Below the pieces are notes generated by a model that ran no database searches, was not told the origin of the DNA, and worked only from the letters and a program-made list of their open reading frames with translations. The translations under genes and the position numbers were made by a program. Shown here piece by piece: positions 8,773 to 62,815 of a stretch of DNA of 64,000 nt; the first letter of the stretch is position 1, and each line of letters starts with the position of its first letter. The DNA comes from Parcubacteria bacterium C7867-004 (lineage in GTDB: Bacteria; Patescibacteriota; Minisyncoccia; Phycocordibacterales; Phycocordibacteraceae): assembly GCA_001189075.1 (NCBI GenBank), contig LFCN01000006.1, forward strand, positions 237,219-301,218. Reading direction: 5' to 3'.

Positions 8773-9246
8773 ATGCCCGATTTCAAGAAGACCAATCGAT
8801 TCAGTAAGCCAGGAGGCTTCAAGCGCCCGACATTCGGGTCAGGACCGCGTCGCCCCGCTGGACGCGATTTCGGGAATACCGAGACATTCAAGGCAACCTG
8901 CAGCAAGTGCAACAATTCCTGCGATGTGCCGTTCCGTCCGAATGGGAAGAAGCCGGTATTCTGCAAGGACTGCTTCGTCCGCGATGACGCCCGCCCTCAG
9001 ACCGGGGGATATGAGAAGCGTAGCTACAACGACGAGCGCCCTTCCTACAATCCTAAGCCGGCTGTAACCGAGGACCCTCGTATCGGTGCTATGCAGAAGG
9101 AGCTCGCGGTAGTCCATGCGAAACTCGATACCCTTATCGAGCGCCTCGAAGGCGCGGCGTTCTCTTCGATCATTGAGAAGGCATCCGAGCGCGCGGAAAA
9201 GCCGGTAAAGACTAAAGCCGCAGCAAAGAAAGCAGCGAAAAAATAA
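8773..9246 (+). CDS. zinc-ribbon protein with Lys/Ala-rich C-terminal tail
   Basis: CSKCNNSC...FCKDCF gives a CxxC...CxxC zinc ribbon. C-terminal KTKAAAKKAAKK basic tail. Preceded by TTGTATGATATAAT. Confidence 0.55.
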   Translation: MPDFKKTNRFSKPGGFKRPTFGSGPRRPAGRDFGNTETFKATCSKCNNSCDVPFRPNGKKPVFCKDCFVRDDARPQTGGYEKRSYNDERPSYNPKPAVTEDPRIGAMQKELAVVHAKLDTLIERLEGAAFSSIIEKASERAEKPVKTKAAAKKAAKK

Positions 9247-33462: not shown

Positions 33463-33871
33463 GAACGAACGGGAATTCGAGCAGATCGCGATAGAGGAGT
33501 GGAAGCGGGTGCCGGACCGATTTAAGGGGAAGATACAGAATCTCGCACTCCTTATCGAAGACGAGCCAGACCAGGAGGTGCGAGAACTGGAAGCGCTCGA
33601 AGAGGGCGAGACGCTGCTCGGTCTCTATCGCGGCGTCCCGCTCACCGAACGGGGAAGCGAGTACGGCATCGGCATGACGCTGCCCGATACGATAACGCTG
33701 TACCGGCTTCCAATTATAGAGGAGGCGGAGGAGATGGATCGCGCGTTCAGGGATGCGGTGCGCATTGTTGTCCGCGAGACCATATGGCACGAAGTAGGGC
33801 ACTACTTCGGTCATGGGGAAGAATCGATCAATGAGCGGGAGGATGATGGGACCAATCGGTTCGAGTCCTAA
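33461..33871 (+). CDS. zincin-like metallopeptidase family protein (DUF1025-like)
   Basis: HExxH in IWHEVGHYFGH. ~136 aa. Confidence 0.6.
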   Translation: MNEREFEQIAIEEWKRVPDRFKGKIQNLALLIEDEPDQEVRELEALEEGETLLGLYRGVPLTERGSEYGIGMTLPDTITLYRLPIIEEAEEMDRAFRDAVRIVVRETIWHEVGHYFGHGEESINEREDDGTNRFES

Positions 33872-33991
33872 TCTCCCAGCTTGGCACAAGGTGACGCCTT
33901 GACAGCTCCAATCGCGGTCGCGTTGCGAATTTAGCATGTCGGTACATAATTCGAGCGAGCCCGCAGGGGCGGTTACGTCGGGCTACTCACT

Positions 33992-36289
33992 ATGATTTCT
34001 AAGATAAATCGCGTCAGAAAACTCGGACTCGTCTTCGCTGACTTCTCATGGTCAGCGGTAGTCCCCGCGTTTCGAGCCTTCAATCTGGTCTATGGCTGGA
34101 ACGGCTGCGGAAAAACGACGCTCACCCGCCTGTTCGACATGATCGCGCGCGGCGACGCTGGCGAGGTGGAATACGAAGTTGAAGATGTAAGCGGGGCCGC
34201 TTTCAGGTCAGCAGATCAATTCCCCACGCCGATACGCGTCTTCAATCAGGACTACGTCCAGAGCAATGTCCGAGTCCTGGAGTCGTCAGCGAACACAATC
34301 TCCGTACTGTTGGGCGCAGAGAACAAGGAACTCGCGACCCAGATTGAAGCTGACGAGCGCCTCCTGAACGGCTTGCCAGGTGACGGCGACAAAATCGGGA
34401 AGGTTCGCGAACTGCGCGGGTACACCGAAAAGAAGATCCGCAAGGAAAAGGGTAACGACACCGCCTTCACCGACATCGCCAAGACCATCGGAGCGGCGAT
34501 TGTCGGTAGCGGCGCGGCATCTCGCACCTATCGGGCTCCGGATGCGAAGAAGGACTTCTCTAGCATAAAAGCGCCCGCGCTCCTCTCGGACGAGGAGCGG
34601 GAACGGCACATTCTGGCGCTCAAGCAGGAGATGCTGCCCGAGGTGGAGCCAGTCCAGGCCCCTTCCTTGGACTTTAACGGCAAAGAGGCCTCAGTCCTCG
34701 AGGTCCTCGCCGCGCTTTCCGACCGCGCGGCCGCGCTCTGCATCGAAACGGTCGAGAGCGAAACGGTCCGCAAGCTAATAGGGCATCCCGACATCGCAGC
34801 CTGGGTTGAGGCGGGCCTCCATCTTCACAACGAGCATTCGTCGAAGAGTTGTGAATTCTGCGGCAACGAAATCCCAAAGGACCGCTTGGCCCAGCTTGCG
34901 CGCCACTTCAGCGAGGCCGATCGACGCCTGAAGGCGGACGTTGAGGCTGTCGTGGTGCAGCTCCGCGACGTGCATCGCCTCCTTACGGCCGTTCCGGTGC
35001 CCGATGCTGCGCGCCTATACCGCGAGCTTCAGGCGGACTTCGCCGAGAAGCGGTTGCTGGTTGAGGATGCCCGAACCAACCTGCTGGCACAGGTAACGGC
35101 GGTCGGGAAGGCGCTTCAAGAAAAGAAGTTGCGCACGACAGAAGCCGTCGAGCTAGGCGCAGGGGTGGACGTGAGGCCGCTCGCCGATGCGATCGAGACG
35201 GCGAACGCCGTGATCGAAATGCACAACCGGAGATCCAAGGACTTCATGGCGGTGCAGAGAAAGTCAGTGGGCGCGATCAAGGTGCACTATCTCAGCACCA
35301 TCTTCGACGATGTGACGCGGCGAAACGGCGAGATTGCAGAACTCGTAACAGGCCTCGCGCGGCGGTCCGTGGAGATCGATGAAATTCGCGCTCGGGTCGC
35401 AGCAGCACGGGCCAAGATCTCCTCCGCTCATGCGGCATGCGAGCAGATCAACGAAGGCCTTAGGACCTTCTTGGGGCGCGACGAGCTGCGCTTTGTACCT
35501 GAGGAGCGCGAAGCCGACGGGGACGGCCAGGCCGCGGGTACTGTGTTGGGTTATCGGATCATGCGGGGCGACGAGCCGGCGGTTTATCTCAGCGAAGGGG
35601 AGAAGACAGCACTCGGGTTCGTGTACTTCGTTGTGCACCTCAACGACGGTCAGTTCCCTAAGCGGGATGGAATCGTCGTTATCGATGACCCGATCTCAAG
35701 CCTCGACTCGAACTCTCTCTACCAAGCGTTCAGCTTCCTCAAGAATGCTGTGGCGGGTTGCCAGCAGGTCTTCGTGCTCACTCACAATTTTGACTTTCTC
35801 AAGCTCCTCCTGAATTGGCGTAAACGGGATGGAGGTGCCGGATACTACATGATCAAGAACCATATCGAAGCCGACGAACGACGTGCCTCGATTGTCGAAA
35901 TGGACAAGGAGCTTCGGCAGTACGAGAGCGAGTACCATTACCTGTTCAAGCGCCTGAAGGAGATGCGGACGGAGCAGGACGGCACAATCATGCGCGCCTA
36001 TCCGGTGCCGAACATCGCGCGCAAGGTTTGGGACACGTTCCTCACCTTCCAAGTTCCGAACGGCGAGAGTCAATATCAGAAGATGAAGTACCTCAAGACG
36101 CAGGACTATTCAGCCGAAAAGCTCGACGCCATATATAAGTTTACGAACGATCAGTCCCACATCACCGGTGCGGGCTTTGATCCCGCTCTGGTCCCTGAGA
36201 CACAGAAGGTTCTGGCCGAGTTGTTCGAGATGATGGAGCAGATCGCGCCCGAGCATTTCCGGATTCTCGACCGCGCTACGGCTGTCTAG
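33992..36289 (+). CDS. RloC/PrrC-like AAA_13 ATPase with zinc hook and anticodon-nuclease-like C-terminal domain
   Basis: Walker A GWNGCGKTT. Central coiled-coil with CEFC. Walker B/ABC-like VVIDDPISSLD. C-terminal IARKVWDTFLTF and NDQSH. Confidence 0.65.
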   Translation: MISKINRVRKLGLVFADFSWSAVVPAFRAFNLVYGWNGCGKTTLTRLFDMIARGDAGEVEYEVEDVSGAAFRSADQFPTPIRVFNQDYVQSNVRVLESSANTISVLLGAENKELATQIEADERLLNGLPGDGDKIGKVRELRGYTEKKIRKEKGNDTAFTDIAKTIGAAIVGSGAASRTYRAPDAKKDFSSIKAPALLSDEERERHILALKQEMLPEVEPVQAPSLDFNGKEASVLEVLAALSDRAAALCIETVESETVRKLIGHPDIAAWVEAGLHLHNEHSSKSCEFCGNEIPKDRLAQLARHFSEADRRLKADVEAVVVQLRDVHRLLTAVPVPDAARLYRELQADFAEKRLLVEDARTNLLAQVTAVGKALQEKKLRTTEAVELGAGVDVRPLADAIETANAVIEMHNRRSKDFMAVQRKSVGAIKVHYLSTIFDDVTRRNGEIAELVTGLARRSVEIDEIRARVAAARAKISSAHAACEQINEGLRTFLGRDELRFVPEEREADGDGQAAGTVLGYRIMRGDEPAVYLSEGEKTALGFVYFVVHLNDGQFPKRDGIVVIDDPISSLDSNSLYQAFSFLKNAVAGCQQVFVLTHNFDFLKLLLNWRKRDGGAGYYMIKNHIEADERRASIVEMDKELRQYESEYHYLFKRLKEMRTEQDGTIMRAYPVPNIARKVWDTFLTFQVPNGESQYQKMKYLKTQDYSAEKLDAIYKFTNDQSHITGAGFDPALVPETQKVLAELFEMMEQIAPEHFRILDRATAV

Positions 36290-36605
36290 CCCGTCGCGGC
36301 AGCGCAATCGGAGACCGTGGAGTAGGACGACAGCATCCTTCAGGCGCATCGTCTGGTGCCGCTACGACACCAGGAAGTGGACGTAGGGACGTTAGGACTT
36401 TCTATGCGGCCTCGTGTGCCGTATCGCGCCGTCGACGAACGACCAACCCGGCAAGATCAAGCTGATCTCGATGGGTTTCGTCGGCCGCGATTTCTTCAAC
36501 AGTCCGCTTCAATTCAGCTTCAAGGGTTTGAACTTCGTCGCGTAGCCCCAGCCTGTGATTTTATAAAAAGAAAAGAGCCGATGTGTTACATCAGCTTCAC
36601 GTTTT

Positions 36606-36869
36606 CTAGACCGGCACCATGTCCACTTCTCCCATCGTAGACCTCACCGCATAGACGAGGCACTGGTCAGTGCAGGACTCGGGGTTGGCGGCGATGAACT
36701 CCTGCGCCTTTTCTATGGACGTGAAGGTTTCGAGCACACAGAGACCCATCACGATGTCGAGCAGCGGTGCATAGACCAGCCCATCGCCCATTCCCATTTT
36801 CGGGGCAATGCGGCACAGCCAGGGATTCAGGGACGCGGTCGCGTTCTTCTTGATACAGAACTTATCGCT
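36606..36869 (-). CDS. hypothetical small protein (cassette 1)
   Basis: ORF 36606..36884. MSDKFCIKK after a GGAGG RBS. Four Cys. No known motif. Confidence 0.4.
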   Translation of the reverse strand, partial: SDKFCIKKNATASLNPWLCRIAPKMGMGDGLVYAPLLDIVMGLCVLETFTSIEKAQEFIAANPESCTDQCLVYAVRSTMGEVDMVPV

Positions 36870-36936
36870 CATGTGAGCCTCCAAGGTGTCAGTCAGGGCG
36901 ACTATATCACCAATTCAAAGTTTGTCATTGCAAAAA

Positions 36937-36961
36937 GGTTCCAACGTCGTACCAAACTCCC
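36937..36961 (-). repeat. conserved 25-nt promoter-proximal element, copy 1
   Basis: + strand GGTTCCAACGTCGTACCAaACtCCC. Lies between the terminator of gene 37024..37860 and the -35 of gene 36606..36869. Confidence 0.7.
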
Positions 36962-37023
36962 AAACAAAAAAGATAGCCTCGCGCTATAAGAGCGCGAGGC
37001 CTAATCTATCTCGGGACTGGGAT

Positions 37024-37860
37024 CTAAGCGGCCGATGTCCGCAGACGGGGGCGAGGGGTGAACTGAAGCACCTTTCCATCCCCGAACTTGACTTCAGCTT
37101 CATCGCTCAGCGCGACCACCACCGGGGTGCTTTCCTCCGCCAGGGTTCGATTGAGATACTCCACCAGGCAGTTTAAGGCGTGGTTGAGGAAGCAGTGCTT
37201 CGTGGGATTCTCGACGAAGAGCGGGATACCGCTCGTCTGACTAAGAATCTCAAGAAATGCGTCCCTGCGCCGCTCCCAGTTCGTATCGGCTTCGGGATTG
37301 AGGACCACGAAGCTCGGGCTAATGCCCGCTCCAACCAGTCCCCAGAACACACCGGGATCTTCCTCTCCGACAGGAAGCCGGAGAATCGCCGGCGCCTGTT
37401 CGAATGGCCACCCCGAAGCTTGATGCGCCGGCTGTCCAACCTGCTCTCGTGGATAGAAGCCGAACGCGAGCGTGCCGCCCTGAATCAGGGTCGATTGGCC
37501 GTCGGCAGGAATGACGCAAACGCCGAGGTCAAACCCGAGGGTGCTGATGTCAGGATACCCCTCTTGAAGATCCTGAAGCAGGAGCCCCATCAGCAGCTGT
37601 GCGTTCGACGGGTTCTGCGACCGGAGCCGCTCGTACTCATCGCAGAACGCCTGGTATTCAGGCGCCGGGTTCGAGGCCCGGATCTCCTGCATATACAGAG
37701 CGTCATGGCTCAGAAGATCTTCGAAGGTGTAGATCGGGTGGCAACCCTCTCGCTCCGTCTCGAACAGACAGACGATGTGTTGCCGCCCGATGTTTCCGTT
37801 GATGATGTGGCAGACCTGCCGAGGATCATCGGATTCCAGCATTTCAATGCCAAACAACAT
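37024..37860 (-). CDS. hypothetical protein (cassette 2)
   Basis: 278 aa with its own promoter and terminator (GGCCTCGCGC...GCGCGAGGC, then a T-run). Confidence 0.5.
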   Translation of the reverse strand: MLFGIEMLESDDPRQVCHIINGNIGRQHIVCLFETEREGCHPIYTFEDLLSHDALYMQEIRASNPAPEYQAFCDEYERLRSQNPSNAQLLMGLLLQDLQEGYPDISTLGFDLGVCVIPADGQSTLIQGGTLAFGFYPREQVGQPAHQASGWPFEQAPAILRLPVGEEDPGVFWGLVGAGISPSFVVLNPEADTNWERRRDAFLEILSQTSGIPLFVENPTKHCFLNHALNCLVEYLNRTLAEESTPVVVALSDEAEVKFGDGKVLQFTPRPRLRTSAA

Positions 37861-37957
37861 ATTCGCCTCCAGGGCAGGTTGAACGTTCCTGGAGCTGAAT
37901 ATATAAGATTATTTATAAAAGTCAAAAATGTACTTAACTAAGGGAATTACTCAAAAA

Positions 37958-37982
37958 GGTTCCAACGTCGTACCAGACACCC
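37958..37982 (-). repeat. conserved 25-nt element, copy 2
   Basis: GGTTCCAACGTCGTACCAGACACCC. Confidence 0.8.
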
Positions 37983-38019
37983 AAAGAAAAAACGACGGTG
38001 GTGGCCGTCGCTCGTCTCA

Positions 38020-38406
38020 TCAGTGTTTGGGAACAATTTTGAGAGCATCTGCTTCCTTCAGATGCTTCAGGAAGTGCGACATGCCGTCGCGCATGTCTCT
38101 GGCCCAGAAGTCGGCGAAGAACACTTCCGCATCTGCGAGCAGGTCAGTGAAGTCATCGCCCTTGATCGTGGGGTTGGTGAGGTCGCCGCTCAGATCAACT
38201 CGCGTGACTGCCTGAGCCTCGACGAAGAGTCGCACCCCGCCGTTCCAGCTGTCTCGCTGAATTCGAACGGTCTCCTGCCCGTTGCGAGACAGGATGAGGT
38301 CCTGGATGCCGAGCCCCGGCTCATACACCCCTTCGTACAGACCTCGTGGGCTGTACATTACGCCCTGCTCCCTCGCCAGTTCCCGCACGTTGTCTTGATA
38401 GCCCAT
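38020..38406 (-). CDS. hypothetical protein (cassette 3)
   Basis: Start at MGYQDN after a GGGAGGTG RBS. The longer ORF to 38505 would run through repeat copy 3, so it is rejected. Confidence 0.5.
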   Translation of the reverse strand: MGYQDNVRELAREQGVMYSPRGLYEGVYEPGLGIQDLILSRNGQETVRIQRDSWNGGVRLFVEAQAVTRVDLSGDLTNPTIKGDDFTDLLADAEVFFADFWARDMRDGMSHFLKHLKEADALKIVPKH

Positions 38407-38453
38407 AAACACCTCCCTGGGGTCTGGACAGAACCTAGCATGGATTGCGTGAG

Positions 38454-38478
38454 GGTTCCAACGTCGTACCAGACACCC
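38454..38478 (-). repeat. conserved 25-nt element, copy 3
   Basis: GGTTCCAACGTCGTACCAGACACCC. Confidence 0.8.
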
Positions 38479-38537
38479 ACTATACAAAAGACCCGCCGAC
38501 AACATGCCAGCGGGCCCAGAAAACTATACTCGTGCGA

Positions 38538-38792
38538 CTAGGGGATCTTGTCCACCACCGCTTGAGCCTTGAGGAGCTGGTACACCATGAGCGGACCCAT
38601 GGCGAACGCGCCCCTCTCATTGTCGGACATGGGCGGGAGTTTGAGGAGCCACTCCGCCACATGAGCGGCGATGATGGGGTTCTCCTCAGTGACCTCCTTC
38701 AGCCAGTTGCCGACATCGGCACCGGCTCTGTCCCGGACCGACTCCATCACGGCGTCGGAGGTTGCTCGGGACACTACAGGAAGTTCGGTCAT
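38538..38792 (-). CDS. hypothetical protein (cassette 4)
   Basis: 84 aa. TTGACA...TATTAT promoter and a GGTG RBS. Confidence 0.45.
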   Translation of the reverse strand: MTELPVVSRATSDAVMESVRDRAGADVGNWLKEVTEENPIIAAHVAEWLLKLPPMSDNERGAFAMGPLMVYQLLKAQAVVDKIP

Positions 38793-38893
38793 TTCACCTA
38801 ATCCTTGTGAGTTGTTGTCAGAATGTGCTCAAATACATAATACACATATATTATGTATTTGTCAATGTTTTAAGAGCAAAAGCCTTCAAAAAA

Positions 38894-38918
38894 GGTTCCA
38901 ACGTCGTACCAGACACCC
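38894..38918 (-). repeat. conserved 25-nt element, copy 4
   Basis: GGTTCCAACGTCGTACCAGACACCC, 5 nt beyond the stop of the L,D-transpeptidase gene. Confidence 0.8.
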
Positions 38919-38923
38919 AGCTC

Positions 38924-39751
38924 CTAATTTTGCACCAGAACTGAAGTACCAAGCTGAGCCCATGCATACAGCTTCTCCGCTGTGTCGAGCGGCAGGTTCA
39001 CGCAACCATGCGACCACTGCTTCCCGAACTCGGTATGCCAGTATGCGCCGTGTATCGCTCCGCCCTCTTTGGTGAAATACAGGTTCCAGGGGACACCGGG
39101 AAGGTCATAATACTGATCGGATATGCCGGGAAGCGGCCCTTGCATGTAGCGGCTCGGAGTCTTTCGATACACGCTGAAGAAGCCGCGCGGCGTCGGTGTG
39201 AGATCGAGCCCGGTCGATGCCTGAGACTCCATGAAGAGTTCCTCGCCCTCATATGCGTAGAGCTTCTGTTCGGAGATATCGACTACAATGTGCTTTTTCG
39301 CTGACGGTTCATTCTGCATATCTTCAACAGGGAAGAATGGATGGACGAAATCTCCGGCGACATACCAGTCCTTAGCCACGCGATCGGGATACCGAATCCA
39401 TTCGGTGAATTGAACCCGATACCACGTTCGTCCGGTGGAATCGATGCTCGTGCTCGTCGCAACCGGTAATACCATGCCGGTGCGGAGGTTACCGATCGAA
39501 GGAGCCGTGCTCGTCGGCGCCGAGCGTATGTTCACGCATGCTCCTTCGAAATGCGGTCCGCATCCGTCGAGTATCTCTATATATGGGGGATGTGGAGCAG
39601 TGTTTTCCTGCTCCGTGAACAGCTCCGAGAAGAGGTTGGCGGCTGGGCCTTCCACACCGCCCGTCTCTGGTTTAGAAAAGAGAACGAACAAGAGGATACA
39701 GATAAGTACGGCCGCGCAGGCGAGAAGCGGTATCCAAGTAATTTTACGCAT
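38924..39751 (-). CDS. L,D-transpeptidase (YkuD domain) with N-terminal anchor
   Basis: HIVVDISEQKLYAYEG...SHGCVNLP catalytic His/Cys motif. N-terminal TM. Confidence 0.8.
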   Translation of the reverse strand: MRKITWIPLLACAAVLICILLFVLFSKPETGGVEGPAANLFSELFTEQENTAPHPPYIEILDGCGPHFEGACVNIRSAPTSTAPSIGNLRTGMVLPVATSTSIDSTGRTWYRVQFTEWIRYPDRVAKDWYVAGDFVHPFFPVEDMQNEPSAKKHIVVDISEQKLYAYEGEELFMESQASTGLDLTPTPRGFFSVYRKTPSRYMQGPLPGISDQYYDLPGVPWNLYFTKEGGAIHGAYWHTEFGKQWSHGCVNLPLDTAEKLYAWAQLGTSVLVQN

Positions 39752-47619: not shown

Positions 47620-47640
47620 AAATTGCTATACTCTTCCCAT

Positions 47641-48291
47641 ATGACAACGAAATCAATGCTATGGACGGGCGGGATTGTGATCGTAGTTCTCGGGTTCGCG
47701 TTCGCGCTCTCCCTGCTCGGTACGAAGCCTGCGGCAGGCGTTGCGATCCCGCTTCCGCCGGTCACCGCTGACGATCACGTCAAAGGAGCGGAGAACGGCA
47801 GGGTCACGGTCGTCGAGTATCTCGATCTCGAATGCGCTGCCTGCGCCGCGTACTATCCGCTCGTGAAGCAGATGGAAGAGGAGTTCGGGGACCGCGTAAC
47901 CTTCGTCGTACGCTATTTCCCGCTCCAGGGCCACATCAACGGGTATCCTGCAGCGCTCGCAGCAGAGGCTGCGAGCCGCCAGGGAAAGTTCTGGGAAATG
48001 CACGATCTTCTGTTCGAGAACCAGAAGGAGTGGGGAGGAAAGCAGTCGGCTACTCCTGAAGTCTTTGAAACCTATGCACAGAAAATCGGCCTCAATATGG
48101 AGCAGTTCAAGACGGATTTCGCGTCCGAGAGCGTGAAGGAGCGTGTCGAACGAAACAAGACGGAGGCCCGGGACCTGAAGCTCAACGGCACGCCGTCGTT
48201 CTTCCTCCAGGGGCTGCAAATCGCGAGCCCGCCGTCACCTGAAGCTTTCCGTGCGCTTATCCAGGCAGAGCTTGATCGCACTGCGTCATAA
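47641..48291 (+). CDS. DsbA-family thiol:disulfide oxidoreductase
   Basis: TM anchor and a thioredoxin fold with the CAAC active site (LECAACAAY). Confidence 0.8.
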   Translation: MTTKSMLWTGGIVIVVLGFAFALSLLGTKPAAGVAIPLPPVTADDHVKGAENGRVTVVEYLDLECAACAAYYPLVKQMEEEFGDRVTFVVRYFPLQGHINGYPAALAAEAASRQGKFWEMHDLLFENQKEWGGKQSATPEVFETYAQKIGLNMEQFKTDFASESVKERVERNKTEARDLKLNGTPSFFLQGLQIASPPSPEAFRALIQAELDRTAS

Positions 48292-48312
48292 CTGACCCTA
48301 CTACCTATATCT

Positions 48313-49041
48313 ATGGAACACGAACCAACCCCAAAGGCCGCATCAAACGTTGCGCTCACGACCCCGGTCGCGATACTTATCGGTTCGCTGATAATTGCCG
48401 GAGCGATACTCATAACCAAGTACGCGCCTAATCCGCTTGGAGGAGTAGCGGCTCAAGCGGAAGAGAAAGTGAATCTTGAGGCGATGCGTCCGGTTACCGC
48501 TGAAGATCACATCCGTGGCAATCCCGACGCGCCGGTAAAGATAGTCGCGTATTCCGATACCGAGTGCCCGTTCTGCAAGCGTTTCCATGACACCATGATG
48601 GAGGTTATGGCCACCTATGGCGCAGAGGGGAAAGTAGCGTGGGTATATCGCCATTTCCCGCTCGATCAGCTCCATCAGAGCGCACGCGCAGAAGCGGTCG
48701 CTACCGAATGTGCGGCAGAGCAGGGAGGCGATGAGGTGTTCTGGAAGTACGTCGACCGGATGATGGAGATAACCCCTTCGAACGACGGGCTCGATCCCAG
48801 CGAGCTTCCGAAGATCGCCGCATTCGTCGGACTCGACGTCACCGCATTCAATGCCTGCGTCTCGTCTGACAAGTACGCAAAGAAGATCCAGGACGATATT
48901 GATAACGCGGTGGAAACGGGCGGACGGGGAACGCCGTGGAGCATCATCGTCGGCGCGGACGGCAAGCAGTACCCGCTCTCAGGCGCGCAGCCGATCACGG
49001 CAATCAACAAGCTCGTCGATGTCGCACTCGCCGGTACATAA
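48313..49041 (+). CDS. DsbA-family thiol:disulfide oxidoreductase
   Basis: TM anchor and the CPFC active site (TECPFCKRF). Confidence 0.8.
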   Translation: MEHEPTPKAASNVALTTPVAILIGSLIIAGAILITKYAPNPLGGVAAQAEEKVNLEAMRPVTAEDHIRGNPDAPVKIVAYSDTECPFCKRFHDTMMEVMATYGAEGKVAWVYRHFPLDQLHQSARAEAVATECAAEQGGDEVFWKYVDRMMEITPSNDGLDPSELPKIAAFVGLDVTAFNACVSSDKYAKKIQDDIDNAVETGGRGTPWSIIVGADGKQYPLSGAQPITAINKLVDVALAGT

Positions 49042-53894: not shown

Positions 53895-54368
53895 ATGAGT
53901 TCGATGCCGCAGGTTGGAGACATCGCCCCAGATTTCACGCTTCCCGATCAAGACGGCGGCATGCACGCGCTCTCGAGTTATCGGGGCAAGAACATTCTCC
54001 TGTATTTCTATCCGAAAGATGATACGCCCGGCTGCACGAAGGAGGCCTGCGCCATCCGGGATGCTGAACCCGACTTCTCAAAGCTCAATGCGGTTGTGCT
54101 CGGGGTATCTGCGGACTCGGTGAAGAGTCATAAGAAGTTCTCCGAGAAGTACGGTCTCGCATTCACGCTCCTGGCTGACGAAGGGAAGGAGGTAGTGAAT
54201 CTCTACGGCGTATGGGGCCGGAAGAAGATGATGGGACGCGAATATGACGGCGTGTTCCGCACTTCCTTCCTCATCGGCCCGGATGGGCGCATCAAGCGAG
54301 TGTATGAAAAAGTGAAGCCGGAACTGCATGCGGCTGACGTGCTCGCTGATCTTAACGGGCATGCCTGA
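53895..54368 (+). CDS. bcp: thiol peroxidase Bcp (peroxiredoxin Q)
   Basis: [15 protein letters not shown] gives the peroxidatic Cys and the resolving Cys five residues apart. Confidence 0.85.
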
Positions 54369-55029
54369 GAAAATATTCGAGGAACGAAAGGCACGGGCGA
54401 AGAAACTGATCGCGTATCTTAAGAAAGCGTATCCGAAACCGGCAACCGAGCTCAATTATACGACCCCTATACAGCTCGTTGTAGCAGTCATGCTGTCGGC
54501 GCAATCGACCGACAAGCGCGTGAATCTGGTCACGGAGGTGATCTTCAAGAACTACAAGACCGTGAATGACTTTGCGGATGCTGACTTGGCGACGTTCACG
54601 CAGCAGATCTCTTCCATCACGTTCTTCCAGAACAAAGCGAAGCACATCATCGCAACCGCGAAGATGATCAGGGATGAGTTCGGAGGCGAGATACCCAAGA
54701 TTGAAGCCCAGCTCGTGCGGCTTCCCGGGATCGCGTACAAGACTGCGCACGTGGTGCTCGGCGAGCTCTACGGCATCTATGAAGGCATCCCAACCGATAC
54801 GCACGTCCGCCGGTTCGCACTGCGCTTCGATCTCACCAACCGCACTGAGCTTACGAGGATATCAAAGGATCTTGAGATGCTCATCCCGAAGAACGATTGG
54901 AAATACGTGAACAACGGCTTCGTGCTCTATGGCCGATATCTGTGTCCTGCGCTCCCGCATCCGTGCGAGAACCATCCGCTCACGAAGCTTTGGCCGCCAG
55001 CGGCCAATCGTTGGCCGAAATCGAAATAA
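54361..55029 (+). CDS. nth: endonuclease III-like HhH-GPD glycosylase (incomplete Fe-S motif)
   Basis: Hh[14 protein letters not shown] and catalytic Lys/Asp region. Only two of the four cluster Cys are present (CPALPHPC). Overlaps bcp by 8 nt. Confidence 0.8.
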
Positions 55030-55618: not shown

Positions 55619-55867
55619 ATGGAAAAACGACTGTATCGAAGCCGCACTAATAAGGTCATTGCGGGCGTCCTCGGCGGGATCGGCGAGTATTACGACACTG
55701 ACCCTGTGATCATCCGTCTGGTCTACCTCCTCGCTACATTCGCAACCGGTATCGTCCCGGGCATCCTCGCGTATTTGGTCGCCATGCTCATTGTTCCGGT
55801 AGCGCCTCCGTTCGTACCGTCCACCCCGGCCTCTGCCGAAGCGGTACATGACACCGAAACGGTTTAG
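55619..55867 (+). CDS. PspC domain membrane protein
   Basis: LYRSRTNKVIAGVLGGIGEYYDTDPVIIRLVYLL is the PspC signature. One TM. Confidence 0.7.
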   Translation: MEKRLYRSRTNKVIAGVLGGIGEYYDTDPVIIRLVYLLATFATGIVPGILAYLVAMLIVPVAPPFVPSTPASAEAVHDTETV

Positions 55868-56657
55868 GGAAACCGTCCTCGCGTACTACGCGAAAGAAGG
55901 AAGACAAACGCTTCCGTGGAGGCGAACGAAGGATCCGTACCGTATCCTCGTGTCGGAAGTAATGCTGCAGCAGACGCAGGTGGAGCGGGTCATCCCGTAC
56001 TATCGCGCATTCCTCGATCGGTTCCCGAAGATAGAAGACCTTGCGAGCGCTCCGCTTTCAGACGTTCTCACACTTTGGCAAGGACTCGGCTACAACCGCC
56101 GCGCAAAGATGCTGCATGAGGCAGCGAAAATGGTGCGGGTAGATTTCAGTGGAAAGATGCCGACGACTCCCGAGAAGCTTGAGATGCTTCCCGGTGTGGG
56201 TCCGTACACGGCAGGAGCGATAGCAGCATTCAGCAAGAACACCGATGTGATATTCATCGAGACGAATATTCGTACGGCAGTTATCCATCATTTCTTTCCG
56301 GGAGAAGAGAAGGTTCCTGATAGCGAGATAGTTTCAATACTCGAGAAAGCGTATCCCGAGGGTAAGGCCCGCGAGTGGTATTCGGCGCTCATGGACTATG
56401 GCTCAATGCTCAAGCGAAGTGGCGTGCGAGTAAACGTGAAAAGCAAGGGATACGCAAAGCAAACGAAGTTCGAGGGCTCGAAGCGTCAGGCACGCGGAGC
56501 GATTCTGAAAGCACTCGTAGGAAGTCCTCGTAGAGGAGATTTCCTCATCGCGCTCCTTGGTCCCGAGCGGGAAGGACAGATGCGTTCGCAACTCGCCTCC
56601 CTTACAAAAGAAGGGCTTGTCGAGCTTACGAACCGACGGTTCCGGCTTCCAGGCTGA
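55848..56657 (+). CDS. MutY/EndoIII-like HhH-GPD glycosylase lacking Fe-S cysteines
   Basis: LPWRRTKDPYRILVSEVMLQQTQV...WQGLGYNRRAKML...LPGVGPYTAGAI. No Cys cluster. Confidence 0.75.
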   Translation: MTPKRFRETVLAYYAKEGRQTLPWRRTKDPYRILVSEVMLQQTQVERVIPYYRAFLDRFPKIEDLASAPLSDVLTLWQGLGYNRRAKMLHEAAKMVRVDFSGKMPTTPEKLEMLPGVGPYTAGAIAAFSKNTDVIFIETNIRTAVIHHFFPGEEKVPDSEIVSILEKAYPEGKAREWYSALMDYGSMLKRSGVRVNVKSKGYAKQTKFEGSKRQARGAILKALVGSPRRGDFLIALLGPEREGQMRSQLASLTKEGLVELTNRRFRLPG

Positions 56658-62113: not shown

Positions 62114-62563
62114 CTACAAATAGGACGGCGGAGACTCTACTCCAGCCTCCCGCTGCCATTGGTCTTGAAGGATCAGGTCGCGCGCCACGCAGACGATGAC
62201 CTGCGTCGCTACTCTCGCGAGAAGGCCATGGCCGTTAAACGAGTGCATGTAGAAATTGGGCGCCGGGAGGTGAACGAATCCGGTTTGATGACGGAATCGC
62301 GCACCAGGGATCTTTTCTCCAGGGAGATGAGCACCATGCGGCGTCCCGTACGCACAGATGCGCCCGAGCGTCTCGTTGCTCATCTCGTATGCCTTCTGCT
62401 GGATTAGCAGATGAAGCTGCTCGTAGAGCTTGTGAGCATCAGCTCCCTTATCCCGCTCTCGGTGGGCGCGAAGTAGTCTCACTCCCACGACGTGCTTGGT
62501 CAGGTTGATGATGTAGTCCCCGTCTTGGACCCACGGTTCCGCGACCGTAATGGACATACTCAT
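62114..62563 (-). CDS. hypothetical protein (His-rich; downstream of repeat copy 5)
   Basis: 149 aa. GAGGGAT RBS. ~200-nt leader starting at a TTGACT...TAAATAT promoter next to the degenerate 25-nt element. Confidence 0.45.
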   Translation of the reverse strand: MSMSITVAEPWVQDGDYIINLTKHVVGVRLLRAHRERDKGADAHKLYEQLHLLIQQKAYEMSNETLGRICAYGTPHGAHLPGEKIPGARFRHQTGFVHLPAPNFYMHSFNGHGLLARVATQVIVCVARDLILQDQWQREAGVESPPSYL

Positions 62564-62768
62564 GTTTATCCCTCGGTAAGAGATTTCCCACTATCTGAAT
62601 GAATCGAGTAGCTCAGCATTGAGCAGTTCGATACAAGGCAGAGTGACCTTGTTAGTGGCCCAGCAGGCCGAAGCAAGCTGATGTGGAGTATATTTACATA
62701 AAAAACGAATAAGTCAAGTATCATACCCCGCGGCCAGTACTCGAGTAGGATTTTAATAATTTATTAAA

Positions 62769-62792
62769 AGTTCTAACTTCGTCCCAGACACC
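62769..62792 (-). repeat. degenerate 25-nt element, copy 5
   Basis: aGTTCtAACtTCGTcCCAGACACC. Same orientation relative to the minus-strand promoter as copies 1-4. Confidence 0.5.
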
Positions 62793-62815
62793 AAGCCGCG
62801 CTACACTGCACGTAT

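Follow-up and report, generated by a model that had tools for sequence, protein, structure and literature searches.

A tRNA-Gln-derived direct repeat as a candidate recombination site of integron-like gene cassettes in Patescibacteria

Integrons, and the clusters of attC sites lacking integron integrases (CALINs), hold unidirectional arrays of mostly single-ORF (open reading frame) cassettes of a few hundred bp, each closed by a repeat of fixed orientation. Most of these cassettes are promoterless and co-directional, a minority are inverted and carry their own promoter, the cargo consists of small accessory enzymes and ORFans, and an array can exist without an adjacent integrase. In Bacteroidales, the recombinase-associated arrays called rAID-1 hold orphan immunity genes, and in streptococci integrase-less cis-mobilizable elements (CIMEs) accrete. 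The tycheposon islands of Prochlorococcus are tRNA-anchored, with tandem site-specific integration and partial tRNA repeats (10.1101/2020.12.28.424599). Here we analyze a short sequence (GGTTCCAACGTCGTACCAGACACCC, the 25-mer) that recurs between four small genes in a 64,000-nt stretch of Parcubacteria bacterium C7867-004 (contig LFCN01000006.1, positions 237,219–301,218 of the forward strand; hereafter the window), together with the gene arrays in which it occurs elsewhere in the Patescibacteria. We put the probability at roughly 60% that this element is an att-like site at which cassettes recombine to form an integron-like array anchored at tRNA-Gln, by means of a recombinase encoded elsewhere.

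On the + strand of the window the 25-mer matches at 25 of 25 positions at 37958, 38454 and 38894 and at 23 of 25 at 36937, as a preliminary description of this DNA had stated, and chance matches were absent from 100 dinucleotide-preserving shuffles. Copy 1 (38889–38922, 25-mer at 38894–38918) forms the distal end of the array and begins 5 nt past the stop codon of an L,D-transpeptidase gene. Copy 2 spans 38452–38479 (25-mer at 38454–38478) and copy 3 37953–37983 (25-mer at 37958–37982), both exact; copy 4 (36932–36962, 25-mer at 36937–36961) is the one with two mismatches and reads GGTTCCAACGTCGTACCAAACTCCCAAAC in the sense that resembles a tRNA-Gln 3′ end. Read on the minus strand, which is the strand of the genes, each copy is GGGTGTCTGGTACGACGTTGGAACC, and a T-run comes next in three of the four; copy 2 lacks it on its promoter-proximal side. 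A length of 25 nt turned out to be too short for the unit. The conserved sequence covers ~33–40 nt and takes in the T-run and a further TTGGAAC/TTGCAAC, with the extended consensus tt-GCTGGGnGTy-TGGTACGACGTTGGAACC-TTTTTG(G/C)AAC, of which the 25-mer is the core. The degenerate copy reported near 62.77 kb is real: a diverged singleton at 62767–62796 (+ strand) matches a 30-nt reference at 25 positions and repeats the layout of the array, with element, promoter and then an ORFan gene (62114–62563, minus strand).

When one genome per species (596 Gb) was scanned for exact matches to the 18-nt core GGTTCCAACGTCGTACCA, 29 loci were returned. About 25 of them belong to metagenome-assembled genomes (MAGs) of Patescibacteria, labeled Paceibacterota, Kaiserbacteria, Parcubacteria or Saccharibacteria, and every one of these has the extended consensus in otherwise unrelated flanks. 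The four matches in other phyla all lack the extension, and they agree with the ~17 chance matches calculated for a search space of 596 Gb. A metagenome scan added 57 loci with the core. The exact 18-mer does not occur in the viral contigs of IMG/VR, and blastn with a 51-nt query matched neither INPHARED phages nor PLSDB plasmids.

Diverged copies were found with a 36-nt profile built from the exact-core instances and searched around them. The resulting arrays include those with at least eight copies in locus L006, six in L001, five to seven in L004 and four each in L043, L045, L050 and L084. All 65 adjacent element pairs (65/65) lie on the same strand, 267–2436 nt apart (median 584), with one gene per interval; a CRISPR-like or tandem repeat was rejected, as this spacing is filled with genes. 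The cargo comprises small, unrelated accessory functions: a GNAT acetyltransferase, a P-loop kinase, a HIT hydrolase, an endo/exonuclease-phosphatase, a C39 peptidase, a RibD_C reductase, an S-adenosylmethionine (SAM) methyltransferase and a flavin mononucleotide (FMN) reductase, plus ORFans. Beyond the arrays lie housekeeping genes, among them pyrG, ftsEX and dnaX. In 37 of the 54 cassettes elsewhere the gene is opposite to those of the window; its stop codon and the element's GGAACC end are only 0–4 nt apart, too close for a promoter to fit between them. In the other 17 it is arranged as in the window. The orientation of the element is therefore constant for the array and not for the genes, as for a recombination site and not as for an operator.

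In each of the respects named at the outset, these arrays resemble integrons and CALINs: they are unidirectional (65/65), their mostly promoterless single-ORF cassettes end in the site, and 37 cassettes are co-directional and 17 inverted. They differ in that they are anchored at tRNA-Gln and not at intI-attI, and in that the site, ~33 nt long and of tRNA 3′-end origin, lacks the form of an imperfect palindrome and shows no folding as single-stranded DNA. An IntI-type gene with attI and Pc was not seen; this is not decisive alone, since CALIN-type arrays lack intI too. As an attC site proper the element was rejected. Its only GTT box is GTTGGAA, with A in place of Y as the seventh base, no complementary RYYYAAC occurs on the same strand within 150 nt, and the hairpin-forming inverted repeat R″-L″...L′-R′ is lacking. 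The rAID-1 arrays are similar to the four cassettes of the window in holding small unrelated genes with conserved intergenic sequence that includes promoters; they differ in adjoining a XerD-like recombinase gene and in having no tRNA-derived repeat.

The lead to the origin of the element was locus L089, where sequences that start like the element go on to match a tRNA T-arm in reverse complement. ARAGORN found 31 tRNA genes, 18 of them tRNA-Gln, in 438 kb of non-redundant loci that carry elements. At these 18 loci all 41 elements (41/41) are downstream of the tRNA-Gln and run in its direction, reading GGTTCC...CCCAGC. The association is independent of how the loci were selected, because they were chosen only by the 18-mer, which is absent from the tRNA itself. 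A ~60-nt sequence directly after the tRNA-Gln (GAGCTARGTTATCNCGCTCNAG...) is kept in three loci (L001 7816–7879, L084 6340–6404, and L045) and not in the other 15. An exception to the tRNA-Gln rule is L043 (11822–12229), whose array adjoins a tRNA-Pro/tRNA-Pro/tRNA-Ala cluster in the opposite relative orientation.

In an alignment, the element corresponds to the last ~23 nt of tRNA-Gln, from G53 to C74 (T-loop to discriminator), with a 5-nt insertion in the T-loop part: the tRNA reads GGTTCGA-----GTCCATGTCCCCCAGC and the element GGTTCCAACGTCGTACCAGACACCCAGC. With the insertion and its diverged T-stem part, the element could not restore a tRNA. The least conserved third of the element is the one that corresponds to the acceptor 3′ strand and discriminator. 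Here unusual acceptor bases of tRNA-Gln recur in the elements of their own lineage (CTGGCAAC in L045, CCCGCAGC in L019, TCTGCCAGC in L002 and L089), and elements match the adjacent tRNA at 4.70 of 7 positions compared to 4.25 ± 0.16 in shuffled pairings (permutation p = 0.007). Remnants without the insertion are confined to the origins of arrays, at 33853 in the window and at 8915 and 4070 in L089.

Such a repeat might also be an inert scar, a decaying attL or attR remnant left where larger elements with an integrase had repeatedly integrated at tRNA-Gln and been lost. There are indeed degenerate copies and remnants without the insertion, and islands anchored at tRNA genes, with partial tRNAs scattered through them, are well known (10.1101/2020.12.28.424599). 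Scars, though, should be copies of the local tRNA that decay evenly; the best-conserved part is instead the core that does not resemble the tRNA and includes the insertion. This core does not vary between lineages, and the units have a regular length of one gene. We regard this explanation as very improbable. For a recombination site of a cassette array, tycheposon islands offer a partial parallel. They too lie immediately 3′ of a tRNA gene (as the arrays do at 18 loci), tRNA-3′-related direct repeats part their successive insertions, and they carry defense and niche functions; that newcomers push older units outward is part of the tycheposon model and is only assumed for the arrays described here. 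Their repeats, in contrast, are faithful ~40-nt partial tRNAs, and they bound multi-gene units with a present or past tyrosine recombinase. The units here hold a single gene without an integrase or a relic of one, and they end in a remodeled tRNA end with a 5-nt insertion and a non-tRNA core conserved across lineages.

The borders of the cassettes can be seen where loci are compared. What follows the 18 tRNA-Gln genes differs from locus to locus without any relation, and ORFs begin 18–40 nt past the end of the tRNA, which makes the tRNA 3′ end a junction as well. A cassette found in both L037 and L050 (76% identity) has unrelated neighbors on both sides; its homology starts just past the upstream ...CCCAG, runs through the ORF and the downstream element, and ends after the downstream CCCAG. 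The gene we call geneX shows the same starting point of homology in L043 and L084, and the RibD_C and GNAT cassettes are bounded by elements in three to four different neighborhoods. These limits define the unit as a unique part followed, on the side away from the tRNA, by one element, and they suggest an exchange point at the acceptor-like end of the element.

A gene of the window recurs in the same manner. A homologue of its 278-aa product (54% identical) is encoded in L089–L092 behind rpsT, in a different chromosomal context, and likewise has an element and a TTGACT promoter in front of it; the mini-array of L089 to which it belongs also ends in an insertion-free tRNA-Gln 3′ remnant. In the same locus (L089 3900–4104), a 170-nt unit that encodes only a 34-aa hydrophobic peptide (MKKDKLMRQIILVVVGAAIILYLFAGIKCLIHIN) lies between an element and a tRNA-Lys with an adjoining tRNA-Gln 3′ remnant.

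We propose that a site-specific recombinase, encoded at another place in the genome, would use the element as its attachment site. Recombination would join a circular cassette with one element either to tRNA-Gln at its 3′ (acceptor) end or to an element that the array already contains; the tRNA 3′ end would take the role of attI, the new cassette would enter beside the tRNA, and the array would grow in the fashion of an integron. Promoterless co-directional cassettes may be driven by the tRNA promoter. Inverted cassettes, such as those of the four small genes in the window, would need a promoter and a terminator of their own, and those genes have both. A broader proposal is that this is a phylum-wide system of gene capture in Patescibacteria, analogous to integrons and independent of them, in which the tRNA-Gln 3′ end would serve as insertion point, the tRNA promoter as expression signal and the ~33-bp element as the site borne by the cassette, while an unlinked recombinase would move single-gene cassettes between the genomes of these small symbionts. 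We advance this more tentatively, at a little less than even odds.

Two features of the sequence would suit a recombinase core site. The core contains a weak 5-7-5 pseudo-dyad (GGTTC-CAACGTC-GTACC), and three to four GT(T/A)CCAA heptads (GTTCCAA / GTTCCAA / GTACCAA) are phased at 11 bp across the core and its T-run side, an arrangement compatible with several protein subunits on one face of the helix. Membership in the Xer/dif sites, including pdif, was rejected: two 11-bp inverted arms around a 6–8 bp spacer are lacking, only the weak 5-7-5 is present, and the sites are all direct repeats where pdif sites alternate.

Several observations weigh against a dedicated recombination site. The element has no clear inverted arms of the classical core-site kind and no inverted partner within it or beside it. 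Nor does it fold: single-stranded DNA folding gives 0 to −1.5 kcal/mol, with z-scores of +0.5 to +1.4 against shuffles. No recombinase was found among the ~60 ORFs of the window by Pfam, by a gamma-delta resolvase probe or by motif searches. Among 150 large ORFs near elements elsewhere there were two Resolvase-domain matches only, and Phage_integrase was not in the 25 most frequent families. The sole recombinase candidates near any element are two ~450-aa large serine recombinase-like ORFs that flank the elements of L024 (JAZKAB010000009.1, 399–1754 and 6649–7998; motif search); they are probably the two Resolvase-domain matches. Neither an excision product nor a circular cassette was found, nor a presence/absence polymorphism between near-identical strains; looking up the exact window proteins returned the same arrangement, with Logan contigs that merely break at identical copies. 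Arrays beside tRNA-Gln(CUG) mostly carry an acceptor-like part of the UUG type (a 1-nt difference), so that the tracking of the tRNA by the element is imperfect. In at least one array, that of L043, the terminal cassette lacks an element of its own, and ARAGORN found no intact tRNA in the whole window, where only a tRNA remnant is present.

The contig breaks just mentioned occur in L088, L095 and L097, from the same organism, which end or start exactly at the three identical copies and read through the copy with two mismatches. This is what k-mer assembly does at exact repeats, and such arrays can be expected to be fragmented often in short-read MAGs.

The lack of a linked recombinase also favors an explanation without one, in which the ~30–40 bp element and the conserved tRNA-Gln would supply short homology for RecA-dependent exchange of cassettes after natural DNA uptake. 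Such uptake is known in the phylum. The copies are homogeneous within a genome while their acceptor-like part differs between lineages, and the place of the arrays is conserved, at tRNA-Gln and in many cases close to pyrG and ftsEX, all of which agrees with exchange by homology. It would leave unexplained, however, why an 18-nt core is invariant across lineages while the flanking tRNA-like part drifts, why the 5-nt insertion is common to all, why co-orientation is strict and why boundaries fall at one end of the element. A length of ~30 bp is, moreover, near the lower limit for RecA-mediated exchange. We consider this explanation unlikely.

The window itself was studied with gene calls from its source contig, which is also deposited as contig DGYM01000008.1 of assembly GCA_002398375.1, and with consensus scans for promoters and terminators. 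These scans reproduced the order of gene, terminator, element, promoter and gene in the preliminary description. The independent gene calls gave four small minus-strand ORFan genes with products of 84, 128, 278 and 88 aa: gene 1 (38538–38792), gene 2 (38020–38406), gene 3 (37024–37860) and gene 4 (36606–36872), in that order. They also bore out an MGYQ start, after GGGAGGTG, for the 128-aa product. None of the four proteins, which the preliminary description had thought immunity-like or accessory, matched anything in Pfam, PADLOC or the PDB. For the 278-aa protein only four relatives were found, and its single-sequence AlphaFold model had a pLDDT (predicted local distance difference test) of 35 and was unusable.

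Each gene has a terminator-like hairpin on its own strand, at 38489–38517 for gene 1, 37990–38013 for gene 2 and 36975–37001 for gene 3; that of gene 4, with a T-run, lies at 36576–36596. Promoter-like sites on the same strand precede gene 1 (38837–38865, TTGACA-17-TATTAT), gene 3 (37898–37925, TTGACT-16-TATATT) and gene 4 (36901–36928, ATGACA-16-TATAGT, with TG in front). A strong promoter and a terminator for each of the four genes follow from their being inverted. The sigma70-like −35 that had been placed immediately beside every copy is found at three of them, at distances of 9, 28 and 32 nt. Copy 2 has no separate TTGACA-type promoter, and TTGGAA within the element is the sole −35 candidate for gene 2. 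Together with 18 nt and TGcTAGGTT it makes up a leader and putative promoter at 38421–38461 (minus strand).

The leader of gene 2 is itself conserved. Its 20 nt (TGCTAGGTTCTGTCCAGACC, 38421–38440, minus strand) stand at an equal distance from an element in L089 (7420–7440), and read TGCTAGG(G)TTCTGTCCAGACC across the two genomes. Homology was not detectable between the window's 128-aa protein and the 126-aa ORF of similar size behind this leader in L089, which fills the slot before the homologue of the 278-aa gene. The reverse complement of the leader (GGTCTGG...CCTAGCA) resembles a second, decayed remnant of a T-arm. Another local feature is a perfect 13-nt inverted repeat (38830–38842 / 38849–38861, CAAATACATAATA ... 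TATTATGTATTTG) over the −10 region of the gene 1 promoter, which could be an operator private to that cassette.

With every copy in the window upstream of a promoter on the coding strand, the element could be regulatory: a transcription factor or an RNA polymerase determinant would bind the 11-bp-phased TTGGNAC heptads and control the adjacent promoter. The only −35 candidate of gene 2 is the TTGGAA of the element, an arrangement kept in L089; the distance from element to promoter of the 278-aa gene differs by exactly 11 nt between the window and L089; and the core resembles the −24/−12 pair of sigma-54. This last resemblance did not hold up, as a sigma-54 promoter needs GG-N10-GC (TGGCACG-N4-TTGC) and the core, TGGTACG-N3-TTGG, has GG-N9-GG with a spacer one base short and often no gene downstream in that orientation. 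Against regulation in general stand the 37 of 54 cassettes elsewhere with their gene on the other strand, a stop codon abutting the element and no space for a promoter. The spacing to the −35 also varies (9, 28 and 32 nt), the orientation of the element follows the tRNA and not the gene, and the element derives from a tRNA 3′ end. We consider a regulatory element quite unlikely. The preliminary description had offered three possibilities: an operator, an alternative-sigma determinant and a recombination site of cassettes. The first two are not supported, given the fixed orientation relative to tRNA and array, the genes of the other strand and the inconstant promoter spacing, and the third fits the arrays at tRNA-Gln across the phylum and the homology that ends at elements.

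The element might instead act in RNA. Arrays would then be co-transcribed from the tRNA-Gln promoter, and the tRNA-3′-like sequence would be a signal for processing, stability or punctuation, in the manner of tRNA punctuation. Two thirds of the cassettes are co-directional with the tRNA and tightly packed, starting 18–40 nt past it, and in the tRNA sense the element does read like the 3′ half of tRNA-Gln. It lacks, however, both a 5′ acceptor strand and T-stem pairing, no structure is predicted for it (the z-scores are positive), and scans of Rfam at gathering and E-value thresholds gave no relevant structured RNA. In the window, moreover, a transcript in the tRNA sense would be antisense to each of the four genes and would meet their terminators, which leaves no message to act on. 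Of all the explanations set out here we rate this one the least probable.

As the origin of the array in the window we propose a tRNA-Gln 3′-end remnant at 33853–33880 (+ strand), in the position of an attI- or attB-like end. The remnant (AATCGGTTCGAGTCCTAATCTCCCAGC, 25–28 nt) comprises the T-loop, the 3′ strands of T-stem and acceptor, G73 and C74, without the 5-nt insertion, and was matched by nhmmer with E = 0.003 at positions 48–72 of a profile of 18 Patescibacteria tRNA-Gln genes. Before it on the + strand come PAP2, a VTT-family gene (on the other strand) and Zincin_1. From the remnant the order continues with AAA_13, the 36523 sequence described below, gene 4, element, gene 3, element, gene 2, element, gene 1, element and L,D-transpeptidase. 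Locus L045 has PAP2, tRNA-Gln and the array in this same order, which speaks for the remnant as the ancestral position of the tRNA. The Zincin_1 metallopeptidase gene (end 33871) has its final codons and its stop codon within the remnant, and whatever event destroyed the tRNA may also have created or changed the C-terminus of the protein.

The first cassette is probably the gene of a 765-aa AAA_13 ATPase (33992–36289, + strand; Pfam AAA_13, E = 5e-122), co-directional with the tRNA remnant, a membership suggested by position only. The protein matches PDC-S06, a PADLOC candidate single-gene defense family, over its full length (E = 1.5e-229) and has weaker similarity to the LmuB, PrrC and AriA ATPases. 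Its cassette would possibly be closed by a strongly diverged copy of the element at 36523–36552 (+ strand, AGGGTTTGAACTTCGTCGCGTAGCCCCAGC), which matches the reference at 20 of 30 positions. This sequence has the ACTTC variant of the 5-nt insert, as does the copy at 62767, and lies on the right strand inside a 317-nt gene-free gap; the match alone is not significant genome-wide and is notable for its position only. This probable membership, the remnant and the tRNA-Gln origin of the element all go beyond the preliminary description.

On its far side the array is flanked by the chromosomal L,D-transpeptidase gene (YkuD + SH3; 38924–39751, minus strand), which lies outside it. Homologues of this gene in related genomes (63–72% identity) stand in other contexts with no element or tRNA beside them. 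Elsewhere in the window, and unrelated to the array, are paralogous pairs of HhH-GPD glycosylase and DsbA-like genes (54328–55029, 55848–56657; 47623–49041).

In full-text searches of the literature with the exact sequence and keyword combinations we found no description of the element, though coverage was incomplete and earlier work is possible. Patescibacteria, the candidate phyla radiation (CPR), have tiny genomes with few recognizable mobile elements to account for their accessory and defense genes. The 18-mer would be a simple tag for their flexible gene pool in metagenomes, and phylogenetic profiling would offer a way to find the missing recombinase. In the few cultivable members the element may provide a docking site for genetic tools. 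If our reading is true, the tRNA-Gln cassette system would rank among the main routes by which genes move in a large share of bacterial diversity, and would be a second, independently evolved answer to the problem that integrons solve.

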